From an uncultured Thermoplasmata archaeon (GTDB lineage: Archaea > Thermoplasmatota > Thermoplasmata > RBG-16-68-12), in NCBI GenBank assembly GCA_963768855.1, contig CAVYJM010000006.1, positions 736,001 through 800,000 of the forward strand: DNA of 64,000 nucleotides, read 5' to 3'. Shown one piece after another: positions 30,599 through 41,071 of the stretch. Position numbers and translations under genes: made by a program. The stretch's first letter is position 1, and each line of letters begins with the position of its first letter. The notes under the pieces are model-generated. The model was not told where the DNA came from and made no database searches. It saw nothing but the letters and a program-made list of their open reading frames with translations.

Positions 30599-31567
30599 GT
30601 GCCACTTTTAGAGGTCAAGGATCTCAAAGTGTACTTCAGCACGCCCGAGGGCGACGTGCGGGCCGTTGACGGCGTTACCTTCTCCCTCGACGAGGGAGAG
30701 TCCCTCGGCCTCGCGGGCGAGAGCGGTTGCGGGAAGACGACCGCGGCCCTTTCCATCATGCGTCTCCTCCCCAAGAACGGCCGGATCGTCGGCGGCTCCA
30801 TCAACTACCAGGGGTACGACTTGGCCACGCTGACCCAGCCCCAGCTGCGTAGCGTCCGGTGGCACCACATCTCCATCATCTTCCAGGGCGCGATGAACGC
30901 CCTGAACCCGGTGCAGCGGATTGGGCGGCAGATTGCCGAACCCATCAAGCTCCACGAGCATGTCGATGATGACGAGGCGAACAAGCGCGTGGGCGAGCTC
31001 CTCGAGCTCGTCGGGATTCATAAGGACCGGGCGACCGAGTACCCCCACGAATTCTCCGGCGGGATGCGGCAGCGCGTGATGATCGCGATGGCGCTCGCCT
31101 GCAACCCGAAGCTCGTCATCGCGGACGAGCCGGTCACCGCGCTGGACGTCATGATCCAGGCGCAGATCCTCGAACTGCTCGAGCGCCTGAAGCGGGAGCT
31201 TGGTCTCTCCATGATTCTGATATCGCACGATCTGTCCGTGATGGCGGAGACGTGCGACAAGATGGCGATCATGTATGCCGGGAAGATGGTGGAGACCGGC
31301 AGCGTCCGGGACGTGTTCAAGAACTCGAAGCATCCCTACACGAAGGACCTCATCGCCGCCTTCCCCGACATCAAGGGCGCCCGCGTCCTGCCCGCGTACA
31401 TCCCTGGGGACATCCCGAGCCTGATCCACCCGCCGACAGGATGTCACTTCCACCCGCGGTGCAAGTTCGCGTGGAACCTGTGCAAGGAGCAGGAGCCCGG
31501 ACTCCTTCCGGTCTCGGATGGGCACTGTGCGGCCTGCCACCTGAACACGAAGGAGTCCTCCCCATGA
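30599..31567 (+). CDS. Peptide/nickel-type ABC transporter ATP-binding protein (OppD/DppD)
   Basis: GESGCGKT, IFQGAMNALNP, EFSGGMRQR, IADEPVTALD and C-terminal GCHFHPRC...C...CHL. Confidence 0.92.
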   Translation: MPLLEVKDLKVYFSTPEGDVRAVDGVTFSLDEGESLGLAGESGCGKTTAALSIMRLLPKNGRIVGGSINYQGYDLATLTQPQLRSVRWHHISIIFQGAMNALNPVQRIGRQIAEPIKLHEHVDDDEANKRVGELLELVGIHKDRATEYPHEFSGGMRQRVMIAMALACNPKLVIADEPVTALDVMIQAQILELLERLKRELGLSMILISHDLSVMAETCDKMAIMYAGKMVETGSVRDVFKNSKHPYTKDLIAAFPDIKGARVLPAYIPGDIPSLIHPPTGCHFHPRCKFAWNLCKEQEPGLLPVSDGHCAACHLNTKESSP

Positions 31568-33324
31568 CCGATCGCGAACCGTACCTGGCCCTGCGGGATT
31601 TCAAGGTCTGGTTCTCCAAGCGTCGCGGGTTCGTTGAAGCCCTCCGCCGATCGGATCCGGGCTACGTCCGCGCGGTGGACGGACTCAACCTCACGATCGG
31701 CAAGGGGGAGATCTACTGCCTCGTCGGAGAGAGCGGGTGCGGCAAGACCACGACGGGAAAGGGCATCCTGAGGCTGGTCGAACCCACCCACGGCGACGTC
31801 TTCCTGAATCCGACCGCGGAGGAACTGGCCCAGTACGAGGCGGCGAAGGCGGGGGGGAAGGCGGCCGAACTCGAGGAGTTCCGGAAGCACAAGTCCCTCA
31901 CATACAGCGAGAAGGTCCACCGGAGTATCAAGGACTGGGCCTTGGGATTCCTGCTCGGAACCGCCAGCCTGATCGTGGCCACCCTCGTTGGATTCGCGCT
32001 CGTCCTGGGTTTCCGGGCAATCGACGCGGGGTCCGTGGAATCCCTCGCCTACCTGATCCTCGGAATTCCGCTGGCCCTCGTGGGGACGCTCCCTTGGGTC
32101 AAGATCAGCCGCCGCGTTCCCCAGCTGCTGACCGTTGCTTCGATTGCCGCGAGCACGGCGACTCAGGTGCTCGGGGTCTACGCGTCCCAGGCGGCCGCCG
32201 GGCTGCCCGCCGATTTCGGTGCCGTCTTCGGCGTCTACAACAACTACATGCAAGAGAACACGGTCTTCCTCGCCCTGGTTCAGTTGGGCCTCGCCGCGCT
32301 CGCCACTTGGGTTGCCTCCGGCGTGTTCTCGCGCCTCTGGGCCCGCCGGCGCGGCGTCGAGACGGACCGTCTCCGGAAGCTCCGCACACGGTTGCAGATC
32401 ATCTTCCAAGACCCCTACGAGTCGCTCAATCCGAGACACACGGTCTACAGCATCGTCGCGGAGCCCCTGCTCGTGAACCGGATTACCCGGAGCCGGTCCG
32501 AAACCGAGGCACGCGTCGAGCAGGCCCTGCAGGACTCGGGCCTGCGGCCGCCGAAGGAGTATCTCCTCCGCTACCCCCACGAGCTGTCGGGAGGGCAGAG
32601 GCAGCGCGTGGGCATCGCGGGTGCCCTCGTCCTCGAGCCGGAGTTCCTCGTCGCGGACGAGCCGGTCTCCATGCTGGACGTTTCCATCCGCACCGAGATC
32701 ATCGAACTCCTCCTCGAACTCCGCCAGAAGCGCAGCCTCACGTACCTGTTCATCACTCATGACCTCTCCCTCGCGTACGTCCTCGCGGACCGCATCGGAG
32801 TCATGTACTTGGGCCAGATCGTCGAGGAAGGACCCACGGAGCAGCTCATCTCGAACCCGCGTCATCCGTACACGAAGGCCCTCATCTCCGTGGTCCCCAT
32901 GCCGGACCCAGACCGGAAGCGGGAGCGGATCATCCTCAAGGGAGAGCGGCCGGATCCCTCGGACATCCCCTCGGGATGCCGGTTCCACCCGCGGTGTCCC
33001 GTCGCCTTCGAGCGATGCGGCTGGACCTCGGACGAGGTGCTCGAGTCCCTCCGTCACCGCGCGGCCGGGGCGGAGTCGGCCTACCTTCAGGATGCCGTGG
33101 TGCAGGGGCCGGACGCGATCGTCTGGCCTCACGTGGCGGACGGATTCGAGCCGTGGCTCCGCGGGCTCATCGCGTCGCGGTCGGAGGAGGATCGCGCCCT
33201 GACGGCGATCCAATCCATCGAGAAGACGGGCGCGGGCGCGAAGGTGATCCTCCACGCGTTCGAGGAGCCCGCACTGAAGACGGCCGCTCCCAACGTCATG
33301 GTCGCATGTCATCTCTACGGCTGA
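31564..33324 (+). CDS. Peptide/nickel-type ABC ATP-binding protein (OppF/DppF) with an internal ~4-helix hydrophobic insertion and a second insertion in the Cys-motif domain
   Basis: GESGCGKT, QIIFQDPYESLNP, ELSGGQRQR, ADEPVSMLD and GCRFHPRC...C...CHLY. 586 aa against 322 aa for the partner. Confidence 0.88.
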   Translation: MTDREPYLALRDFKVWFSKRRGFVEALRRSDPGYVRAVDGLNLTIGKGEIYCLVGESGCGKTTTGKGILRLVEPTHGDVFLNPTAEELAQYEAAKAGGKAAELEEFRKHKSLTYSEKVHRSIKDWALGFLLGTASLIVATLVGFALVLGFRAIDAGSVESLAYLILGIPLALVGTLPWVKISRRVPQLLTVASIAASTATQVLGVYASQAAAGLPADFGAVFGVYNNYMQENTVFLALVQLGLAALATWVASGVFSRLWARRRGVETDRLRKLRTRLQIIFQDPYESLNPRHTVYSIVAEPLLVNRITRSRSETEARVEQALQDSGLRPPKEYLLRYPHELSGGQRQRVGIAGALVLEPEFLVADEPVSMLDVSIRTEIIELLLELRQKRSLTYLFITHDLSLAYVLADRIGVMYLGQIVEEGPTEQLISNPRHPYTKALISVVPMPDPDRKRERIILKGERPDPSDIPSGCRFHPRCPVAFERCGWTSDEVLESLRHRAAGAESAYLQDAVVQGPDAIVWPHVADGFEPWLRGLIASRSEEDRALTAIQSIEKTGAGAKVILHAFEEPALKTAAPNVMVACHLYG

Positions 33325-33414
33325 CGCCGCAAACGGATCTCGCGAAATCGGGGGGCCGAAGGACCTATCTTCCCGTGGGTCTTAGCCTGAGATGACGGGC
33401 GCAGGGGGCGGTCG

Positions 33415-34863
33415 ATGGCACACGCAAGGCTCACGGTCCTATCGCGCGACGAAATCGAGGCTATCCACGGCGCCACCCTGACGCTTCTCGAACGGGTGGG
33501 CGTCAACGTCCGGGAACCGAGCGCCCTCCGGCTTCTCGTGGATGCGGGTGCGGTCCACGAGGAGGGGACCGAGCGAGTCCGGATACCCGAGCCGTTGCTT
33601 ATGGAGGCCGTCCGTGGCGTCCCGAAGCAATGGACGTGGCATGCCCGGGAGGCCTCGAAGAGCTTCCGGCTCGGCGACGGGGGCCGCACTCGCCTGGGCC
33701 CCGGTTCCGCATGCACGAACATTGTCGACTACGCGACCGGGCAGGCCCGTGCGCCCACCGAGAAGGACGGCGACGACCTCGTGCGGTTGATGGATGCCCT
33801 CGAGTTCGCCGACATCAACTATACGCCGGTTTCCCTCGGCGCCTCCTCGGATTCCTCCGGGTACCGCGAGGTCGCCACGCTCGTGCGGGACCTCCGCAAC
33901 ACGTCGAAGGTCTTCGTGGGTCCCTCGTACGACGGGACCATGGCGAGGGAGGGTCTCGAGATCGCGAAGCTTCTGGCCGGCGGTGAGGAGGCCCTCCGCA
34001 AGCGGCCGATGATGGCGGGATACTGCGACCCCGTCAGCCCGCTGACCCACGACCGCATGATGACGGAGACCCTCCTCGAGTATGCGCGGTGGGGACAGCC
34101 CGTGTTCTTGATGTGCCTCGATCTCGCGGGCGCATCCGCCCCGGCCAGCCTCGCGGGAACCCTGGTGCAGCAGAACGCGGAGATCCTGAGCGGAGTGCTG
34201 ATCGCATTCCTGGTCAATCCGCAGACCCCGGTCGTCTACGGGAGCGTCAGCGGGACGATGGACATGAAGGCGGGAAACGCGGCGGTGGGCGGTCCGGAGT
34301 TCGGGCTCATGAGCGCCGCCTCGGTCCAGGTCGCCCACTTCTATGGCTTGCCTTGTTCCACGGGAGGGCAGTCCGACGCGAAGATCCATGATGCCCAGGC
34401 GGCGTTCGAGAAGGGCGCCTCGCTGCTCGCCTCCATGCTCGCGGGCGCCGACATGGTCGACCTCTACTTCGGCTCCTATGAAGGGTTCAACGCGACGAGT
34501 CCAGAACAGATCCTCATCGATCACGAGATCGCGGGCTACGCCCACCGCTACGCCCGCGGGATCGAGGTCGACGAGAGCAGCCTTTCCCTCGATCTGATTG
34601 GAACCGTGGGGCCGGGGGGTAGCTTCCTGAAGGATCCCCGATCGCTCCGGGATACGATGTCTCGGATGAGGACGGAGTGGTATCTCCCCCGGCTGTTCGA
34701 CCGGAAGGTCCCGGACCCGACCGCGCCGCGCAAGACGGTCCTCGAGATCGCCCATGAGGCCGCTGCGGCGATCCTCCGCGAGCACGTTCCGACGCCGCTC
34801 GACCCGGAACTCCTGAAGGAGGCGAACGCGATCCTCCAGCGGATCCGGAAACAAGCGGCGTGA
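33415..34863 (+). CDS. mttB: Trimethylamine methyltransferase (MttB) superfamily protein, non-pyrrolysine (copy 1)
   Basis: LSRDEIEAIHGATLTLLERVGV, PVSPL, AGASAPASLAGTLVQQNAE, GGPE and YGLPCSTGGQSDAK; no in-frame TAG. Confidence 0.9.
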   Translation: MAHARLTVLSRDEIEAIHGATLTLLERVGVNVREPSALRLLVDAGAVHEEGTERVRIPEPLLMEAVRGVPKQWTWHAREASKSFRLGDGGRTRLGPGSACTNIVDYATGQARAPTEKDGDDLVRLMDALEFADINYTPVSLGASSDSSGYREVATLVRDLRNTSKVFVGPSYDGTMAREGLEIAKLLAGGEEALRKRPMMAGYCDPVSPLTHDRMMTETLLEYARWGQPVFLMCLDLAGASAPASLAGTLVQQNAEILSGVLIAFLVNPQTPVVYGSVSGTMDMKAGNAAVGGPEFGLMSAASVQVAHFYGLPCSTGGQSDAKIHDAQAAFEKGASLLASMLAGADMVDLYFGSYEGFNATSPEQILIDHEIAGYAHRYARGIEVDESSLSLDLIGTVGPGGSFLKDPRSLRDTMSRMRTEWYLPRLFDRKVPDPTAPRKTVLEIAHEAAAAILREHVPTPLDPELLKEANAILQRIRKQAA

Positions 34864-34951
34864 ATGGCACTCCGTGCTTAGGCTGACCGAAATCTTAAGC
34901 CAAGACACCGCATCCTCTCAGGAAAGGCCGGGAGGCGATTCGGTGGTATCG

Positions 34952-36127
34952 ATGCAACACGGGGCCTCGACGACGCGGAGAAGGAAAGCCGGAGACCGAT
35001 TAGCGGCGCTGCGCGCGGTCGATCGACCCCTCCATCGTGCTGCCACCTTGCCCGGGTCGTTCTTCAGCGATCCCGATGTGTTCGCACGGGAAAACCGGGC
35101 GCTCTTCCAGCGCTCGTGGATGTGCGTGGGGCGGGAGGACGAGATTCCCCATCTGGGCGACTTCCGCACCTACGAGGTCGGAGGATCCGGCGTCTTCGTA
35201 CTGCGAGACACGGATGGCCGCCTCCGCGCATTCCACAACGTGTGTCGCCACCGCGGCACGCGACTCCTCGAGGACGCCTCGGGGAGCGGGCTGAGCGTCA
35301 TCCGGTGTCCCTACCACGCCTGGACCTACGACCTGAAGGGCCTCCTCGTCGGCGCCCCCCACATGGAGGGGGCCGAGGAATTCCCCCACGAAGACTATGG
35401 CCTGTACCCTGTCCGCGTCGAGACATGGCGCGGCTTCCTGTTCCTCAGCCTCAGCGGGAACGCGGAACCCCTGAAGGACTACCTCGGCGAGTTCGTGGAC
35501 CGGGCCGCTCCATATCCCTTGGAGCGTCTCCGGCGGGCTCACCGGTACGTGTACGAGATCGCCGCCAACTGGAAGCTCGTCGTCCAGAACGCGAACGAAT
35601 GCTATCATTGCCCGGGAATCCACCCGCAGCTCGTGCGGCTCACGCCCTATCGATCCGGGGAGGAGGACCTGAGGAAGGGACCCGTGTTCGGAGGATGGAT
35701 GGATTTCGTGGACGGGGCGCGTACCCTCACGCCGGACGGGCGCACGCCCCGCCGGACGTTCCCCGGTCTCTCGAAAGAAGACCTCGGACGGGTGTACTAC
35801 TATGTCCTGTACCCGAGCAACTTCCTCAGCCTCCTGCCCGACTACGTCACCCTGGACTGGTTCATCCCGCTCTCCGCCGACCGCACGCGTCTCGTCTTCG
35901 ATCTCTACGTCGACCGGGACGAGGGTGACGCGGCGACGGACGCGATGGACTTCTGGGACACGACGAACCGCCAAGACTGGCACATCTGCGAGATGGCGCA
36001 CCTCGGCTCCCGGACGATCGCCTATACGCAGGGCCGCTATAGCAGCGAGGAGGAGGTCGTTCACCTCATCGACCGGTACTATCTCAAGCGGATGGGGCTG
36101 CTCCCGCGGGCCGGCCGAAGGTCCTAG
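34952..36127 (+). CDS. Rieske non-heme iron oxygenase alpha subunit (choline/glycine-betaine/stachydrine monooxygenase-like)
   Basis: Rieske CRHRG...CPYHAW, ANWK, mononuclear Fe NECYHC..IH and DWHICE. Confidence 0.9.
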   Translation: MQHGASTTRRRKAGDRLAALRAVDRPLHRAATLPGSFFSDPDVFARENRALFQRSWMCVGREDEIPHLGDFRTYEVGGSGVFVLRDTDGRLRAFHNVCRHRGTRLLEDASGSGLSVIRCPYHAWTYDLKGLLVGAPHMEGAEEFPHEDYGLYPVRVETWRGFLFLSLSGNAEPLKDYLGEFVDRAAPYPLERLRRAHRYVYEIAANWKLVVQNANECYHCPGIHPQLVRLTPYRSGEEDLRKGPVFGGWMDFVDGARTLTPDGRTPRRTFPGLSKEDLGRVYYYVLYPSNFLSLLPDYVTLDWFIPLSADRTRLVFDLYVDRDEGDAATDAMDFWDTTNRQDWHICEMAHLGSRTIAYTQGRYSSEEEVVHLIDRYYLKRMGLLPRAGRRS

Positions 36128-37056
36128 CCGCCTTTCGTGGCTCCGCCGCGGCGCTTCAGGGCAGGGTTCAGGATTTCCTCGATCCCGTACCCAAGCATGG
36201 CGAACCCCAGCACGAGGACCGTGATGCAGATTCCGGGCGGGAGGAACCACCACCACTTCCCGGTCAGCATCGCACTGGCGGTGTAGGCGTAGTTGACCAT
36301 CTGGCCCCAGGTCTCGACGCCCTGCGGCCCCAGCCCGAAGAAGGAAAGGAACGCCTCCGTGAAGATCGCGCTCGAGACCGTGAGCACGGCCTCGGCCCAG
36401 ACGAGGGGCATCACGTTGGGGAGGATGTGACGAGCGAGGATGTATGCCTTCCCCGCGCCGACCGCCCGTGCGCGTTCAATGAACTGACGTTCCTTCAGGG
36501 ATAGCACCTGGGATCGGATGACGCGAGTCGTCGTCGGCCAGCTCACGAGAGCGATCGCGAAGACGATGGTCGCGAGGCTGTTGCCCAGGATGGACACGAT
36601 GACCAGCACGAACGGAAGCCACGGGACCACGAGGAAGAAGTCCGTGATCCGGGAGAGGATCTGGTCCGTCACCTTCCCGTAGTAGCCGGCGATCAGACCA
36701 AGGGACGTCCCGAGGATCATCGCGGCCAAGGATGCCACAAAACCAATGAGCAGGGAGATCTGGCTCCCGTAGACGATGACGTTCAGGATATCCTTCCCGA
36801 AGTGGTCCGTCCCGAGGAGGTGGGCGCTGGACGGCGGAAGGTCGTTCGGATACAGGGTCAGGAAGCTCTGGTAGGGCCCCACCAAGTAGGGAGCGAAGAC
36901 GGCCAGGACAACGAAGAACACGATGATGACCATCCCGGCCAAGGACAGCTTGTTGCGCAAGATCTGAATGAAGGTCTTCTTGCCCCGCGCGAGGGTTGCC
37001 AGAAGACGCTCCCGAAAAAGGGAGTAACTATCCGGTGTCGCGGTCGCGGTCCCCAT
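36124..37056 (-). CDS. ABC transporter permease (OppC/DppC)
   Basis: LLGTDHFGKD, RSQVLSLKERQFIERARAVGA, HILPN and WWWFLPPG. Confidence 0.9.
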   Translation of the reverse strand: MGTATATPDSYSLFRERLLATLARGKKTFIQILRNKLSLAGMVIIVFFVVLAVFAPYLVGPYQSFLTLYPNDLPPSSAHLLGTDHFGKDILNVIVYGSQISLLIGFVASLAAMILGTSLGLIAGYYGKVTDQILSRITDFFLVVPWLPFVLVIVSILGNSLATIVFAIALVSWPTTTRVIRSQVLSLKERQFIERARAVGAGKAYILARHILPNVMPLVWAEAVLTVSSAIFTEAFLSFFGLGPQGVETWGQMVNYAYTASAMLTGKWWWFLPPGICITVLVLGFAMLGYGIEEILNPALKRRGGATKGG

Positions 37057-37059
37057 GGA

Positions 37060-38067
37060 TCAGGTCTCCTGCACGCGCGGATCGAGGAACATGTAGAGCA
37101 CGTCCGCGACCGCGTTGGCAATCACGACCCCAATTGTTGCGATGAGGAACACCGCGGACAGGACGGGGAAGTTCTGGTTCTGGGTCGCGGTCCACGTGAG
37201 AAGGCCGATGCCGCTGATGTTGAACACGGTCTCGATGACGATCACGCCACTTACGACCCAGCCAAAGTACAGGGCAGACGCGGTGACGACGGGCAGGCGA
37301 GCGTTCGGCAGGGCGTGCCATCGGAGTTGCTGCCTCTCGTTGAGGCCTTTTGCCGCCGCGGTCACCATGTAGTCCTCCGGGAGGACCTCCGTCAGGGAGT
37401 TCCGGAGGGTCAGGGAGAACCAAGCGACGTTCGTGATGACGAACACGAGGATCGCGGGGATGTAGTAGTAGAGCGTGGCGATCGAGTCTTGGATTGGCTC
37501 TCCGACGAGATGGAGCATGCCCGGCTGCGGGAAGAGTCGGACCTCATACGTGAATGCGAAGACGATGACGAGAGACACCCAAAACGAGGGCATGGAATAC
37601 CCGGCTAACGTGGAGAGGGTGATCGTGACATCGGTCTTCGAACCGCGTCTCCAGCCGGACACCCGGCCGAGGACCATGCCCGCCCACATCGTGACCACGG
37701 TCGCGATGCCAATGAGGGTCAGGGTGACACTCAGTGCGGGGGCAATGATCTGCACGACGGGTACGCCGCCCAGGGGCTTGGTCAGTGAGGTTCCTAGGTT
37801 CCCCTGGAGGAGATTACCCATGTAGATGACGAACCTCTGCAGGATTGGCTTGTCGAGCCCCCATTCTGCGATGAGCTGCTTTCGGATCGCGCACTCGCCG
37901 CCGCCTCCGACAGAGCTGTTGCCTCCCCCGCCGCACCCCCTCGGGGTCACGCTGAACGTGGGGTCTCCGGGCAGGACCTGAAAGATGAAGAAATTTAGGG
38001 CGGTGATGAGGAAGATTGTCACCACGATGAGGACGGCTTTCCTCAGGAGGTACCTCCGGAAGTTCGT
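37060..38067 (-). CDS. ABC transporter permease (OppB/DppB), probable ACG start
   Basis: WGLDKP, GNLGTS, MPSFW, EDYMVTAAAKGL, HALPNA and VIETVF. The conserved N-terminal RYLLRK lies upstream of the first GTG. Confidence 0.88.
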   Translation of the reverse strand, partial: TNFRRYLLRKAVLIVVTIFLITALNFFIFQVLPGDPTFSVTPRGCGGGGNSSVGGGGECAIRKQLIAEWGLDKPILQRFVIYMGNLLQGNLGTSLTKPLGGVPVVQIIAPALSVTLTLIGIATVVTMWAGMVLGRVSGWRRGSKTDVTITLSTLAGYSMPSFWVSLVIVFAFTYEVRLFPQPGMLHLVGEPIQDSIATLYYYIPAILVFVITNVAWFSLTLRNSLTEVLPEDYMVTAAAKGLNERQQLRWHALPNARLPVVTASALYFGWVVSGVIVIETVFNISGIGLLTWTATQNQNFPVLSAVFLIATIGVVIANAVADVLYMFLDPRVQET

Positions 38068-38112
38068 TCTAGCGCCTCCTCAGGGTTTCCTCATCACCTT
38101 GGTTCTCCGTTG

Positions 38113-40995
38113 CTACGGCTTCGGCGGGAGTTCGATCTTCGCCTCCGCTTCCTCCTTCTTCTTTCGCCGTCTCATCATGTACACAGCCAGGATGGCCGCA
38201 GCCACAATGACCACCACCGCGACGATCGCCCCAATGATTAGCGGGGTGAACAGCGGTTCCGGCGTGGTCGTTGGGGCAAGGGCGAAGTTGACAACCGCCG
38301 CCGAGCCCGAGGTGACCGAGATGCCCGTCTTCGACTGGGTAGCGTAGCCCGTTGCGCTGGCGTTGACCGTGTAGGTCCCGGGTTCCACGCTGATGTTGAA
38401 CTGTCCCGCGCTGTTCGTGGAGCCGGAGGTCTGCTGCCCGTTGCTCGCGGTCACATAGATCGCGGCGGCCGCAATCACGGCGTTCGTTTGCGAGTCCGTG
38501 ACGGTCCCGGTGATCCATCCGAGAGCGGGGGTCAGCGAGAAGTCCTTCGTGGTCGTCGCGTTCGCGGTTATCGTCACGGACTGCGCTGCCGACGTGACGT
38601 AGAAGTGCGCCGAAGCGACCGCATCGTACGTCCCCGGGGCCAGCGTGATATTGTATAACCCGCTGGCCGGCGTCGTTGATGAGGACGCGCCGCCCGGCAT
38701 CGTGGCGACGACCGCGTCCTTGATCGGGCTGCCAGAGGTGTCTTTCACGACTCCCGCTAGCCAACCGATGATTGGCGGCGCCTCAGTCACGTTCAGGTAC
38801 ACCGGACCTTGCGTCGTCACGCCCGTGTATCCGTCCGACACGGTCGCGCGGATCGTGTAGTTGCCCGTGCGATTCCAGTAGTGCGTACCCGTTGTGCTGC
38901 CTCCGGAGGCGGTGCAGTTCGTCACCGTCTGGTCGTGCGGGCAGTAGGTCGTGGTCCCATCGCCCCAGTCCCACGTGAAGTTCAGTGTGTCCGGGGGGAC
39001 CGTGGGGTCCGTCGACGTGGCGGTGAGGCTCAGGCTCGTGTTCACGATCCAGCTGGCGTAGGTCGGATAGTGGATCACGGGCGAGGTCGGCGGCTGGTTC
39101 TGGACGATCGCAGAGCAGGTCGGGCAGGTGATGTTGAAGAACAGCGGGTTGGCACCCCAGAACGCGTTCATCTGCATGTACGGGTCGTGGTTCCAGTCGC
39201 CCCAGTTCGTCCACACGTCCGTCCGCATCGCCCATTCCCCGTACGGATAGACGTAGATGATGTACGGGGCCATGTCGTAGTTGATCTTCTGCGCCGCGTG
39301 GACGTCTTTGATCCGCTGGTTCAGGTCGAAGTCCGCGAGCTGCGCCAGATAGTAATGGTTGTACGTCGCGTTGTTCCAGAAGTTGTCATTCCAGTCGTCC
39401 AGCGTCCAGGACGATTGCATGGACAGGATGTAGTTCGGGTCGGGGTCCGCGGACCAGTACCAAATGTACATCTCCACCGCGCCGGCATACACGTCGGCGC
39501 TCAGGATGTCCTCCGTCGTCTCGGGTTTGAGGACGATCTGGATCCCGATCCGGGCGTACTCTTGCTGGAGGTACTGCGCCGTGGCGTACTCCTCGGGGAA
39601 ATCACCCGAGGGACGGGTGGCGAGGGTGAATGCGATCTTCGTCCCGGCCTTGATCGTCTTCGTCACGTTCGGCGGATCCGTCATCTGATAGGAGCCCCAG
39701 CCCGTCTGGTAGTCCACGACGATGTCGTTCCTGGCCTCCCGGTAGCCGTTCCCGAACGTCCCGCCGCTCCACAAGTCGTATCCGGACTGATTGAGAAGCG
39801 CGTTCGCTGCCTGGATGTTGTAGGTTAGATTGTCGCCACCCGCGACCGGGTCATACCACCACTGCGGCGTGACGGGGGAGACCAGCGTGTCGCCCCGCTT
39901 GCCCTCGCCATCGTAGAAGTGCTGGATGATGTAGTCCTTGTTCGTGGACATGGCCATCGCCCGCCGGACGTTGATATCGAAGCGGGCGAGGTTGAGAGAG
40001 CTCCCCGGTTTGTCATACTGGCTGATCCCAATCTCGTTCCACTCCTGGATGACCTGCAGGCCCGACTGGACGAGGATGTTCGTCTGGCCTCGAGCGGGTT
40101 CGATCGTCGACGGCGAGAACTGAGCCAGCTGGACACCTCCGCTCAGGAGGTTCGAGGCGAGGGAGTTCGGGTCGCTGAAGAACTTGAGGTAGATGTTCTG
40201 GATGTGGATATTGTCCGACCCGCTGACGTTCGCCCCGACTGCATGGTAGGAGGGGTTCCTCGACACGTGGATGTATCCGCCCGGGCTGAGCGCCGTCAGG
40301 AACTGGTTGTAGATGTTGGAGTCGGCGATGAAGGGGCCCGTGCCGATCGGGTTCGCGTTCGCGTAGGGGATGCCCCCAGGGCAGCCGGCGGTCCCGCCCG
40401 CGCACGATGGGTCGACCGTCCTCCACTGCGCTTGCTGCACGATCGGACCGAAGATGTCCTCGCCCGCGACGAAGGGGATCTTGAAGTAGAGGATCACCTG
40501 CCACGGGTTCGTGGAGGAGATTACGGCGCCGCAGTGGGGTCGGGTCTTCGAGGTACACTGCACGACCTGGTTGAAGTACGGCTCGTATGCCCACAGGGAC
40601 GCGAGGTTCTGGCTGTCGTAGTTCCAGGTGAACGCGACGTCGGCGGCCGTGAGATCCGTGCCGTCCGACCACTTCACGCCCTGGCGCACGGTGTAGGTCC
40701 AGTTGAAACCCGCCGCATCGTGCGTGGCACTCGTGATGATGTTGGGAATGAACGTCCCTTGTCCATCGAATGCAAACGGATAGTCGTACAGTAGGCCGTA
40801 GAGGAAGTAGGATGGGTCATTGATCCCGCGGTACGGATTCAAGTAATCGATTGTCTGCAGGAAGCCGATTGTGAGGTCCGGCGCCGGTACGGCTTTCGCG
40901 GTGATCGCGAGCCCGACTGGCCCGACCACCAAGGTCTGCAGCAACAACGCGACGGTCACTAGTCCACAAATCAACGCGACGTTCAAGGACTTCGT
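38113..40995 (-). CDS. Family-5 ABC substrate-binding protein with PKD-like and two carboxypeptidase-regulatory-like domains and a C-terminal TM anchor
   Basis: YTVRQGVKWSDGTDLTAADVAFT, IGTGPF, NVRRAMAM; PKD-like FTWDWGDG; repeated G.ITG.V.D...GTYTV.AS units; TM then RRRKKK. Start ACG 40995 proposed; ATG 41061 and TTG are alternatives. Confidence 0.86.
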   Translation of the reverse strand, partial: TKSLNVALICGLVTVALLLQTLVVGPVGLAITAKAVPAPDLTIGFLQTIDYLNPYRGINDPSYFLYGLLYDYPFAFDGQGTFIPNIITSATHDAAGFNWTYTVRQGVKWSDGTDLTAADVAFTWNYDSQNLASLWAYEPYFNQVVQCTSKTRPHCGAVISSTNPWQVILYFKIPFVAGEDIFGPIVQQAQWRTVDPSCAGGTAGCPGGIPYANANPIGTGPFIADSNIYNQFLTALSPGGYIHVSRNPSYHAVGANVSGSDNIHIQNIYLKFFSDPNSLASNLLSGGVQLAQFSPSTIEPARGQTNILVQSGLQVIQEWNEIGISQYDKPGSSLNLARFDINVRRAMAMSTNKDYIIQHFYDGEGKRGDTLVSPVTPQWWYDPVAGGDNLTYNIQAANALLNQSGYDLWSGGTFGNGYREARNDIVVDYQTGWGSYQMTDPPNVTKTIKAGTKIAFTLATRPSGDFPEEYATAQYLQQEYARIGIQIVLKPETTEDILSADVYAGAVEMYIWYWSADPDPNYILSMQSSWTLDDWNDNFWNNATYNHYYLAQLADFDLNQRIKDVHAAQKINYDMAPYIIYVYPYGEWAMRTDVWTNWGDWNHDPYMQMNAFWGANPLFFNITCPTCSAIVQNQPPTSPVIHYPTYASWIVNTSLSLTATSTDPTVPPDTLNFTWDWGDGTTTYCPHDQTVTNCTASGGSTTGTHYWNRTGNYTIRATVSDGYTGVTTQGPVYLNVTEAPPIIGWLAGVVKDTSGSPIKDAVVATMPGGASSSTTPASGLYNITLAPGTYDAVASAHFYVTSAAQSVTITANATTTKDFSLTPALGWITGTVTDSQTNAVIAAAAIYVTASNGQQTSGSTNSAGQFNISVEPGTYTVNASATGYATQSKTGISVTSGSAAVVNFALAPTTTPEPLFTPLIIGAIVAVVVIVAAAILAVYMMRRRKKKEEAEAKIELPPKP

Positions 40996-41071
40996 CCGAA
41001 ACCCTCCCGTCCGCGCCGGTCCTTGCGGCCCGACGTCTTTAAGTGATTGACGGACCCCCATAAAAGGGTAC

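Follow-up and report, generated by a model that had tools for sequence, protein, structure and literature searches.

A predicted four-helix membrane module nested in the nucleotide-binding domain of an OppF-type ABC ATPase from an uncultured Thermoplasmata archaeon

In the textbook ATP-binding cassette (ABC) importer, ATP is hydrolyzed in soluble subunits, and force reaches the membrane only via the coupling helices of the permease. The known OppF and DppF ATPases of the PepT family (TC 3.A.1.5) are soluble, peripheral proteins of about 330 residues. Here we analyze an oppF gene (31564-33324, forward strand) in a 64,000-nucleotide stretch of DNA from an uncultured Thermoplasmata archaeon of a wetland/soil setting (contig CAVYJM010000006.1, positions 736,001 to 800,000 of the forward strand; hereafter, we refer to the whole stretch as the window and give positions within it unless a contig is named). 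Its product resembles E. coli OppF (8z21 chain D) and DppF (8z1v and 8z1w chain D; PMC12136057) in its motifs, its four-cysteine oligo_HPY domain and its fold. Unlike these proteins, it carries a predicted 185-residue module of four membrane helices within its nucleotide-binding domain (NBD), as well as an 80-residue domain between the third and fourth cysteines of its predicted iron-sulfur cluster. Its partners are those of known Opp and Dpp systems, namely OppD, OppB, OppC and a family-5 binding protein.

Large modules nested within the NBD are familiar from other ABC-type ATPases, such as SMC/Rad50, with its coiled-coil arm, and UvrA, with its inserted domains. As in the OppF described here, the module in those proteins exits and re-enters between the half of the NBD that holds Walker A and the half that holds the signature and Walker B, with antiparallel helices at its ends and an intact core. 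Unlike the OppF module, theirs are soluble, serve DNA binding in proteins that are not transporters, and occupy a different loop. For membrane helices nested in the NBD of an ABC importer, a full-text search, with most subscription journals outside its reach, found no description in the literature, and structure searches returned no solved chain that covers the insert.

Our preferred reading, to which we assign a probability of roughly 0.7, is that the oppF product is a working ABC ATPase of the OppF type and at the same time an integral membrane protein, with the insert serving as an accessory anchor or assembly module beside OppC. The architecture predicted from sequence and structural model is well supported, and it is a surprising one for ABC-transporter specialists: a conserved membrane domain that interrupts the catalytic domain beside the Q-loop breaks the separation between soluble and membrane parts. 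As an anchor or assembly tag, the module would illustrate how subunits are sorted in a cell that has many near-identical transporters; as a regulator, it would be a new route from the membrane to the ABC motor. There is also a practical consequence, as family models see such OppFs as split matches, so that automatic annotation may give them a wrong label or treat them as broken.

The oppF reading frame is open throughout, and its ATG overlaps the oppD stop codon as ATGA. The product matches Pfam ABC_tran at an E-value of 9.5e-27, in two pieces, and contains the full set of ABC motifs, including a Walker B motif with its catalytic glutamate. An earlier first-pass annotation, made from the DNA letters alone, had reported a continuous frame with intact catalytic motifs, and the 586-residue frame and complete motif set bear this out. 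The gene and the features of its canonical core are:

31564-33324 (+): oppF, gene with two inserts; 586 residues, Pfam ABC_tran in two pieces plus oligo_HPY
31726-31749 (+): Walker A, GESGCGKT, residues 55-62; invariant in 116 sequences
32395-32415 (+): Q-loop region, QIIFQDP, residues 278-284; Q278 and Q282 invariant
32584-32598 (+): signature, LSGGQ, residues 341-345; invariant or nearly invariant columns
32644-32661 (+): Walker B, FLVADE, residues 361-366; invariant or nearly invariant columns
32668-32679 (+): D-loop, SMLD, residues 369-372; invariant or nearly invariant columns
32758-32760 (+): H-loop, H399; invariant or nearly invariant column
32821-33018 (+): oligo_HPY C-terminal domain with Cys472, Cys478 and Cys485; Pfam PF08352, E 1e-21, cysteines invariant or nearly so
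33307-33309 (+): Cys582, fourth expected [4Fe-4S] ligand; invariant in alignments

We built an AlphaFold2 model of OppF from 116 family members, with a mean predicted local distance difference test score (pLDDT) of 87.7 (86-96 across the insert) and a predicted template modeling score (pTM) of 0.78. On this model, VIA-align superimposes E. coli OppF (8z21_D) with Z 39.9, a root-mean-square deviation (rmsd) of 2.2 Å and 44% identity, followed by 8z1w_D at Z 39.4; Foldseek also ranks E. coli OppF and DppF first, with a TM-score of 0.87 on the target. Because 324 of the 328 residues of 8z21_D are superimposed, the canonical OppF is present whole, and the other ~260 residues are additions to it. 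The RecA-like, ABC-beta and helical subdomains and the Fe-S C-terminal domain can all be recognized. The protein scores below the curated NCBIfam cut-offs (297.7 versus 408 for NF008453, 287.3 versus 540 for the OppF model NF011659, and 267.1 versus 660 for the DppF model NF043071); it misses the DppF and OppF cut-offs because the match is split. Its sequence identifies it as a member of the broad OppF/DppF type of the PepT (Opp/Dpp) family, with a substrate that is not nameable from the NCBIfam scores. In E. coli, a [4Fe-4S] cluster is bound in both DppD and DppF, the DppF ligands being Cys293, 299, 306 and 323 (PMC12136057). The spacings of the first three cysteines are the same in our OppF, whereas the last is 97 residues versus 17, and Cys472, Cys478, Cys485 and Cys582 are the ligands expected from the sequence.

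Walker A and the Q-loop stand 215 residues apart in OppF, compared with ~44 in OppD, encoded in the same operon, and 39 in a further OppF paralog. The main insert, ~185 residues long (residues 84-268), lies between these two motifs. The first-pass annotation had placed a hydrophobic block at 31921-32349; the coordinates are exact (residues 120-262), and so are the residue labels it gave for the hydrophobic stretches (W125, F150, L161, W178, L188, A212, V234 and W259). Its figure of about 140 extra residues is right for the hydrophobic block and too low for the insert as a whole, since a hairpin and an SLTY strand precede the helices. The parts of the insert are as follows, hydropathy being given as the maximum of Kyte-Doolittle means over a 19-residue window and net charge as the mean of 116 sequences:

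31813-31893 (+): start of the insert, charged helical hairpin, residues 84-110; AlphaFold2 helices 85-97 and 100-110, R107 nearly invariant
31894-31905 (+): SLTY strand, residues 111-114; S111 and L112 conserved at 90% or more, strand call at residue 111, aligned with SINYQ of OppD
31927-32019 (+): predicted membrane helix 1, residues 122-152; hydropathy 2.15, AlphaFold2 helix 122-152, pLDDT 88-96
32041-32091 (+): predicted membrane helix 2, residues 160-176, with nearly invariant G167; hydropathy 1.94, AlphaFold2 helix 160-174
32083-32115 (+): predicted cytoplasmic loop GTLPWVKISRR, residues 174-184; best-conserved motif of the insert (T175, P177), net charge +2.2
32116-32196 (+): predicted membrane helix 3, residues 185-211; least hydrophobic of the four here (~1.0, against 1.8-2.9 in relatives), AlphaFold2 helix 185-211
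32197-32259 (+): predicted outer loop with a short helix, residues 212-232; AlphaFold2 helix 218-230, net charge -1.1
32260-32349 (+): predicted membrane helix 4, residues 233-262; hydropathy 1.78, AlphaFold2 helix 233-262
32350-32394 (+): basic return segment RGVETDRLRKLRTRL, residues 263-277; net charge +5, G264, R271, L273 and R274 conserved, helix 269-276 and strand 277-280

The return segment leads into the strand that ends at the Q-loop, and the loop between membrane helices 1 and 2 spans 9 residues in the AlphaFold2 model. As modeled, the ~185-residue module interrupts a surface loop; on one side of this loop are the ABC-beta strands, on the other the short helix and the strand that runs up to the Q-loop. 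In structural terms, the SLTY strand probably stands in for the ABC-beta strand that follows the G-x-I-x-F-x-G strand of an ordinary OppF. In the 116-sequence alignment, column identity amounts to 0.83-0.89 for the NBD, 0.44 for the membrane block and 0.56 for the C-terminal insert, and the invariant or nearly invariant residues of the main insert are R107, S111, L112, G167, T175, P177, G264, R271, L273 and R274. Such a pattern points to a membrane module with a structural role whose cytoplasmic side has a small number of fixed contacts.

Hydropathy, charge and helix number all bear on whether the insert is a membrane domain. All four helices are clearly hydrophobic in relatives. Averaged over the 116 sequences, the three predicted cytoplasmic segments carry net charges of +2.05, +2.23 and +4.97 and the two outer loops -0.15 and -1.14, a distribution that obeys the positive-inside rule. 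The insert is kept in all 116 relatives, always with 4 or 6 helices; the 6-helix form, found in six family members, has an extra pair after helix 1 that adds a K/R-rich cytoplasmic loop. When the sister genus is included, the number of helices is 2, 4 or 6 and never odd, and since both ends of the insert are cytoplasmic, it must cross the membrane an even number of times. The AlphaFold2 helices are 25-31 residues long. From sequence and model together, the insert is very probably a genuine membrane domain with both termini inside (N-in/C-in). The first-pass annotation suggested that the NBD is tethered to the membrane or that the insert adds an accessory or regulatory membrane module to the transporter, and this fits the hydropathy, the charges, the even helix number, the AlphaFold2 model, the conservation and the junction-spanning contigs described below.

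In its general layout, the insert resembles the membrane domains of type VII ABC systems (MacB, FtsEX, LolCDE, HrtBA and YtrEF), which likewise form an N-in/C-in four-helix bundle with a conserved cytoplasmic loop between helices 2 and 3. The 6-helix variants place their extra material between helices 1 and 2, the site of the outer domain in FtsX and MacB. Unlike the type VII systems, in which the membrane domain is separate or NBD-terminal and never nested, the bundle is here nested in the NBD; unlike FtsX and MacB, its helix 1-2 loop has only 9 residues, and there is no sequence or Pfam similarity. Among structures compared with the isolated insert by VIA-align, type VII membrane domains came out on top: FtsX reached Z 7.6 (8tzj_C; rmsd 4.3 over 129 residues) and 7.3 (8hd0_C), YtrF 7.1 (9o9x_C) and MlaE 6.8, values to be read against chance matches between helical bundles of up to ~13. 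Foldseek with the isolated insert returned nothing at E-values up to 1. We therefore treat the type VII resemblance as a lead rather than a relationship.

The remaining transporter genes of the locus are:

30599-31567 (+): oppD, partner ATPase; 322 residues, ordinary length without insert, Pfam ABC_tran plus oligo_HPY, ~44 residues from Walker A to the Q-loop
36124-37056 (-): oppC, permease of ordinary size; Pfam BPD_transp_1 and OppC_N, EAA-type coupling motif ARAVGAGKAYILARHILPN
37060-38025 (-): oppB, permease; Pfam BPD_transp_1
38113-41061 (-): oppA, 982-residue family-5 binding protein by Pfam, with PKD and CarboxypepD_reg domains
38173-38235 (-): C-terminal membrane anchor of oppA, a helix followed by the basic tail RRRKKK

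The genes oppC, oppB and oppA thus occupy 36124-41061 on the strand opposite to oppD-oppF. OppB and OppC show 5-6 hydrophobic peaks each, and the permeases are complete, with the EAA-type coupling motif kept.

In the arrangement we propose, the module would leave the NBD as the charged helical hairpin, cross the membrane four times with its N and C termini inside, and return through the basic segment. In the ABC fold, the strand running into the Q-loop forms the edge of the core sheet, adjacent to the helical subdomain and to the coupling groove, and its N terminus is placed at the outer periphery of the NBD dimer, on the side near the membrane. If, as this fold suggests, the insertion loop occupies that outer edge, the module could extend into the membrane at the side of the permease. 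E. coli DppBCDF pairs its F subunit with permease C (PMC12136057), so the bundle would stand next to OppC. There it would serve as a permanent anchor and an extra contact that fixes the ATPase to its own translocator, stabilizing the complex and perhaps making its assembly specific, while staying outside the substrate path of OppB and OppC. The genome encodes about eleven Opp-type systems, which coexist in the cell; as their ATPases differ in the inserts they carry (membrane bundles, zinc ribbons, coiled coils), the inserts may also prevent subunit exchange between paralogous systems. The anchor or assembly-specificity role is our guess at the function. Several points weigh against it: ordinary OppFs function without an anchor, the genome contains further Opp systems whose ATPase works without one, and helix 3 of this OppF is only weakly hydrophobic. 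Moreover, we deduce from the general ABC fold that the bundle is directed to the membrane-facing side of the NBD, and by analogy to the E. coli transporter that it touches OppC.

The alternative that holds up best is that the module is a regulator, with the bundle sensing the lipid state, the membrane potential or an external ligand, pulling on the Q-loop strand and gating ATP hydrolysis. This idea draws on the position of the insert, which stops only ~15 residues short of the Q-loop strand, through which the ATP site is connected to the permease, and on the fact that the GTLPxVK motif and the return segment are its best-conserved parts. It also has precedents among importer NBDs, in the regulatory C-terminal domains of MalK and MetN. 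However, no ligand-binding feature is visible, the outer loops (~9 and 21 residues) are poorly conserved, and a helix number that varies between 2, 4 and 6 suits a loose anchor better than a tuned sensor. We consider a regulatory role unlikely.

We give less credence still to a third role, in which the C-terminal anchor helix of the large OppA would dock onto the bundle within the membrane, so that OppA stays near the translocator. The binding proteins of the other systems with a pre-Q-loop insert are built like the 982-residue OppA: in the three such systems here and in L008, they measure ~720-1050 residues and end in a membrane helix and basic tail, while several insert-free systems have ~575-residue binding proteins without such an anchor. 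The association is imperfect: a C-terminal anchor is also found on the binding proteins of two systems whose OppF lacks a membrane insert (C6 near 1,063 kb, and C17). In addition, the sample is tiny and consists of related members.

It is very improbable that the hydrophobic block lies outside the membrane altogether, as the buried core of a soluble helical domain or as a peripheral patch on the membrane surface. The moderate hydrophobicity of helix 3 in this OppF would suit such a reading, as would the presence of designed soluble bundles among the helical-bundle fold matches. On the other hand, three of the helices exceed 1.7 over the 19-residue window and all four do so in relatives, the charges follow the positive-inside rule, and the helices are 25-31 residues long and always even in number.

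The sequence comparisons exclude, for practical purposes, that the insert arose as an assembly chimera, by a frameshifted fusion, or as an intein or another mobile insertion; the odd architecture alone speaks for such an origin. The frame is continuous, and the G+C content is even along oppF (0.64-0.68 in the insert, similar to the flanks). All of the best 120 homologues (55-81% identical, ~100% coverage), some labelled Thermoplasmata archaeon and coming from many separate assemblies, keep the insert, with 202-287 residues and hydrophobic helices at this site; the layout is common to more than 115 independent assemblies. Wetland metagenome contigs of two studies span both insert junctions at ~96-97% identity (X3 records 9 and 11; X4 records 17 and 20). 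The first-pass annotation had pointed to orthologues with the same insert as a check and to a chimera as a danger; the former are abundant, and the latter is set aside by these independent data. It had also raised an intein-like or mobile sequence, of which no trace was found: OppF and its insert have no Pfam or NCBIfam match to intein, Hint or homing-endonuclease domains, and the C-terminal junction, RRRGVETD, is without the intein-type His-Asn followed by Cys, Ser or Thr. A phmmer search for the free-standing homologues that the annotation had considered (residues 85-270, against 1.84 billion representatives) found none, the sole match being a member of the same family. At E-values up to 1, the membrane insert has no Pfam match except TcpE at 0.27, and none in NCBIfam. 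An ESM Atlas search with an OppF homologue returned ordinary OppF clusters only. We also considered read joints that skip the insert (e.g., from 31748 to 32393) as possible insert-free alleles; these match by at most 25 letters per side, join Walker A to the Q-loop motif, and are best explained by ordinary ABC genes of other organisms.

Within the genome, an insert at the pre-Q-loop site occurs in three OppF paralog types, namely the oppF of the window, C11:277390-279261 and C21:107555-109783. A profile built solely from orthologues of the window oppF matches the other two types at E-values of 1.5e-25 and 4e-14; as it finds nothing else among 11,742 open reading frames (ORFs), the three inserts are homologous. 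As a separate observation, C21:105500-111709, C23 and C24:17000-24730 are near-identical copies of one Opp locus, and the contamination estimate of the genome is 7.7%; the copies look like strain variants or an unresolved assembly repeat rather than three true paralogs.

Outside this genome, the insert profile is positive in 30 of the 37 other genomes of the genus, with 1-4 copies each, and in none of 6 sister-genus genomes or 35 other genomes of the order. Across the class and a 400-genome sample of the phylum, profile and single-sequence searches gave three matches in other families, all weak, and these were rejected as unrelated multi-helix membrane proteins without ABC motifs. Such searches under-count the layout, because they missed inserts of equivalent architecture in the sister genus. 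Whole-protein searches of this genus and inspection of the frames revealed one genome (L117, G274:C112) whose OppF has, at the loop in question, four hydrophobic helices without sequence similarity to the window OppF insert, and a zinc-ribbon-like segment further on. Two other genomes of the sister genus (L154, G238:C123; L155, G135:C65) have an OppF with a long, charged, coiled-coil-like arm that ends in a two-helix hairpin, and these sister-genus forms may make up, together with the family described here, a series of 2, 4 and 6 helices. The closest OppFs in ten genomes from the six other families of the order have no hydrophobic helices within the NBD, and by sequence the membrane insert is, as far as sampled, a feature of this Thermoplasmata family. 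In a collection of species genomes, the insert was present at one locus out of 80, in two copies (Thermoplasmata archaeon SMAG_U3968); the long match spans at the other 79 were rejected as inserts, each being two genes, ordinary oppD-oppF tandems of bacteria and other archaea.

The history of the three paralog types is less straightforward than the homology of their inserts. In a tree of the NBD core of the genome's OppD and OppF proteins, with the insert columns removed, the window oppF type and the C11 type form one clade with a support of 100, and a starred branch, to which three insert-free paralogs belong, excludes the C21 type. The approximately unbiased (AU) test rejects a tree in which every OppF with the pre-Q-loop insert belongs to one clade (p 0.0016), although the inserts are homologous. 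This conflict suggests insert loss, transfer between paralogs or long-branch error, the last being possible because the insert-free rows concerned have very long branches. A broader and tentative possibility is that nested NBD helices mark an unrecognized class of ABC importer in which one ATPase subunit is a true membrane subunit and the bundle is a functional third membrane component that docks the binding-protein anchor or signals to the Q-loop, the hairpins having been added stepwise (2, 4, 6), swapped between paralogs, and acquired repeatedly in archaeal peptide importers.

The second insert of OppF occupies a different position:

33022-33261 (+): second insert, ~80 residues (487-566), a small alpha/beta domain between cluster cysteines 3 and 4; delimited by alignment with OppD, pLDDT 84-93

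This C-terminal insert has no Pfam or NCBIfam match. Similarly long C-terminal regions are also present in several OppFs of other families of the order, so it is older and more widespread than the membrane insert.

Other ATPases of the genome are decorated as well. An OppF paralog of 470 residues outside the window (C6:1106057-1107496; L088:2058-3470, reverse strand) carries ~110 hydrophobic residues, forming 3-4 helices, after the Q-loop. This block sits in the helical subdomain, with 169 residues from the Q-loop to the signature versus ~60 and a normal distance from Walker A to the Q-loop; it is kept in 35 protein clusters at 63-99% identity, and the pre-Q-loop insert profile does not detect it, the two being unrelated in sequence. 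Large soluble inserts occur in OppD-type partners (C6:1107466-1109157, C8:57824-59140, C21:94415-96925, C17:35365-36846 and C23:3212-5002) and include zinc-ribbon-like CxxC...CxxC segments in the helical subdomain and coiled-coil-like arms before the Q-loop, along with one insert ~250 residues long. With the NBD of nearly every Opp system of the genome differently decorated, these predicted domains indicate that NBD decoration of peptide-type importers is habitual in this lineage and that membrane helices entered NBDs at least twice.

Finally, an MttB-family methyltransferase gene and a Rieske oxygenase gene follow oppF on the same strand. Because the importer genes enclose these two, the system may import a methylated amine and not a peptide. 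The gene order oppD-oppF-mttB (30599-36127) is conserved in other species of the genus (L003, L004).

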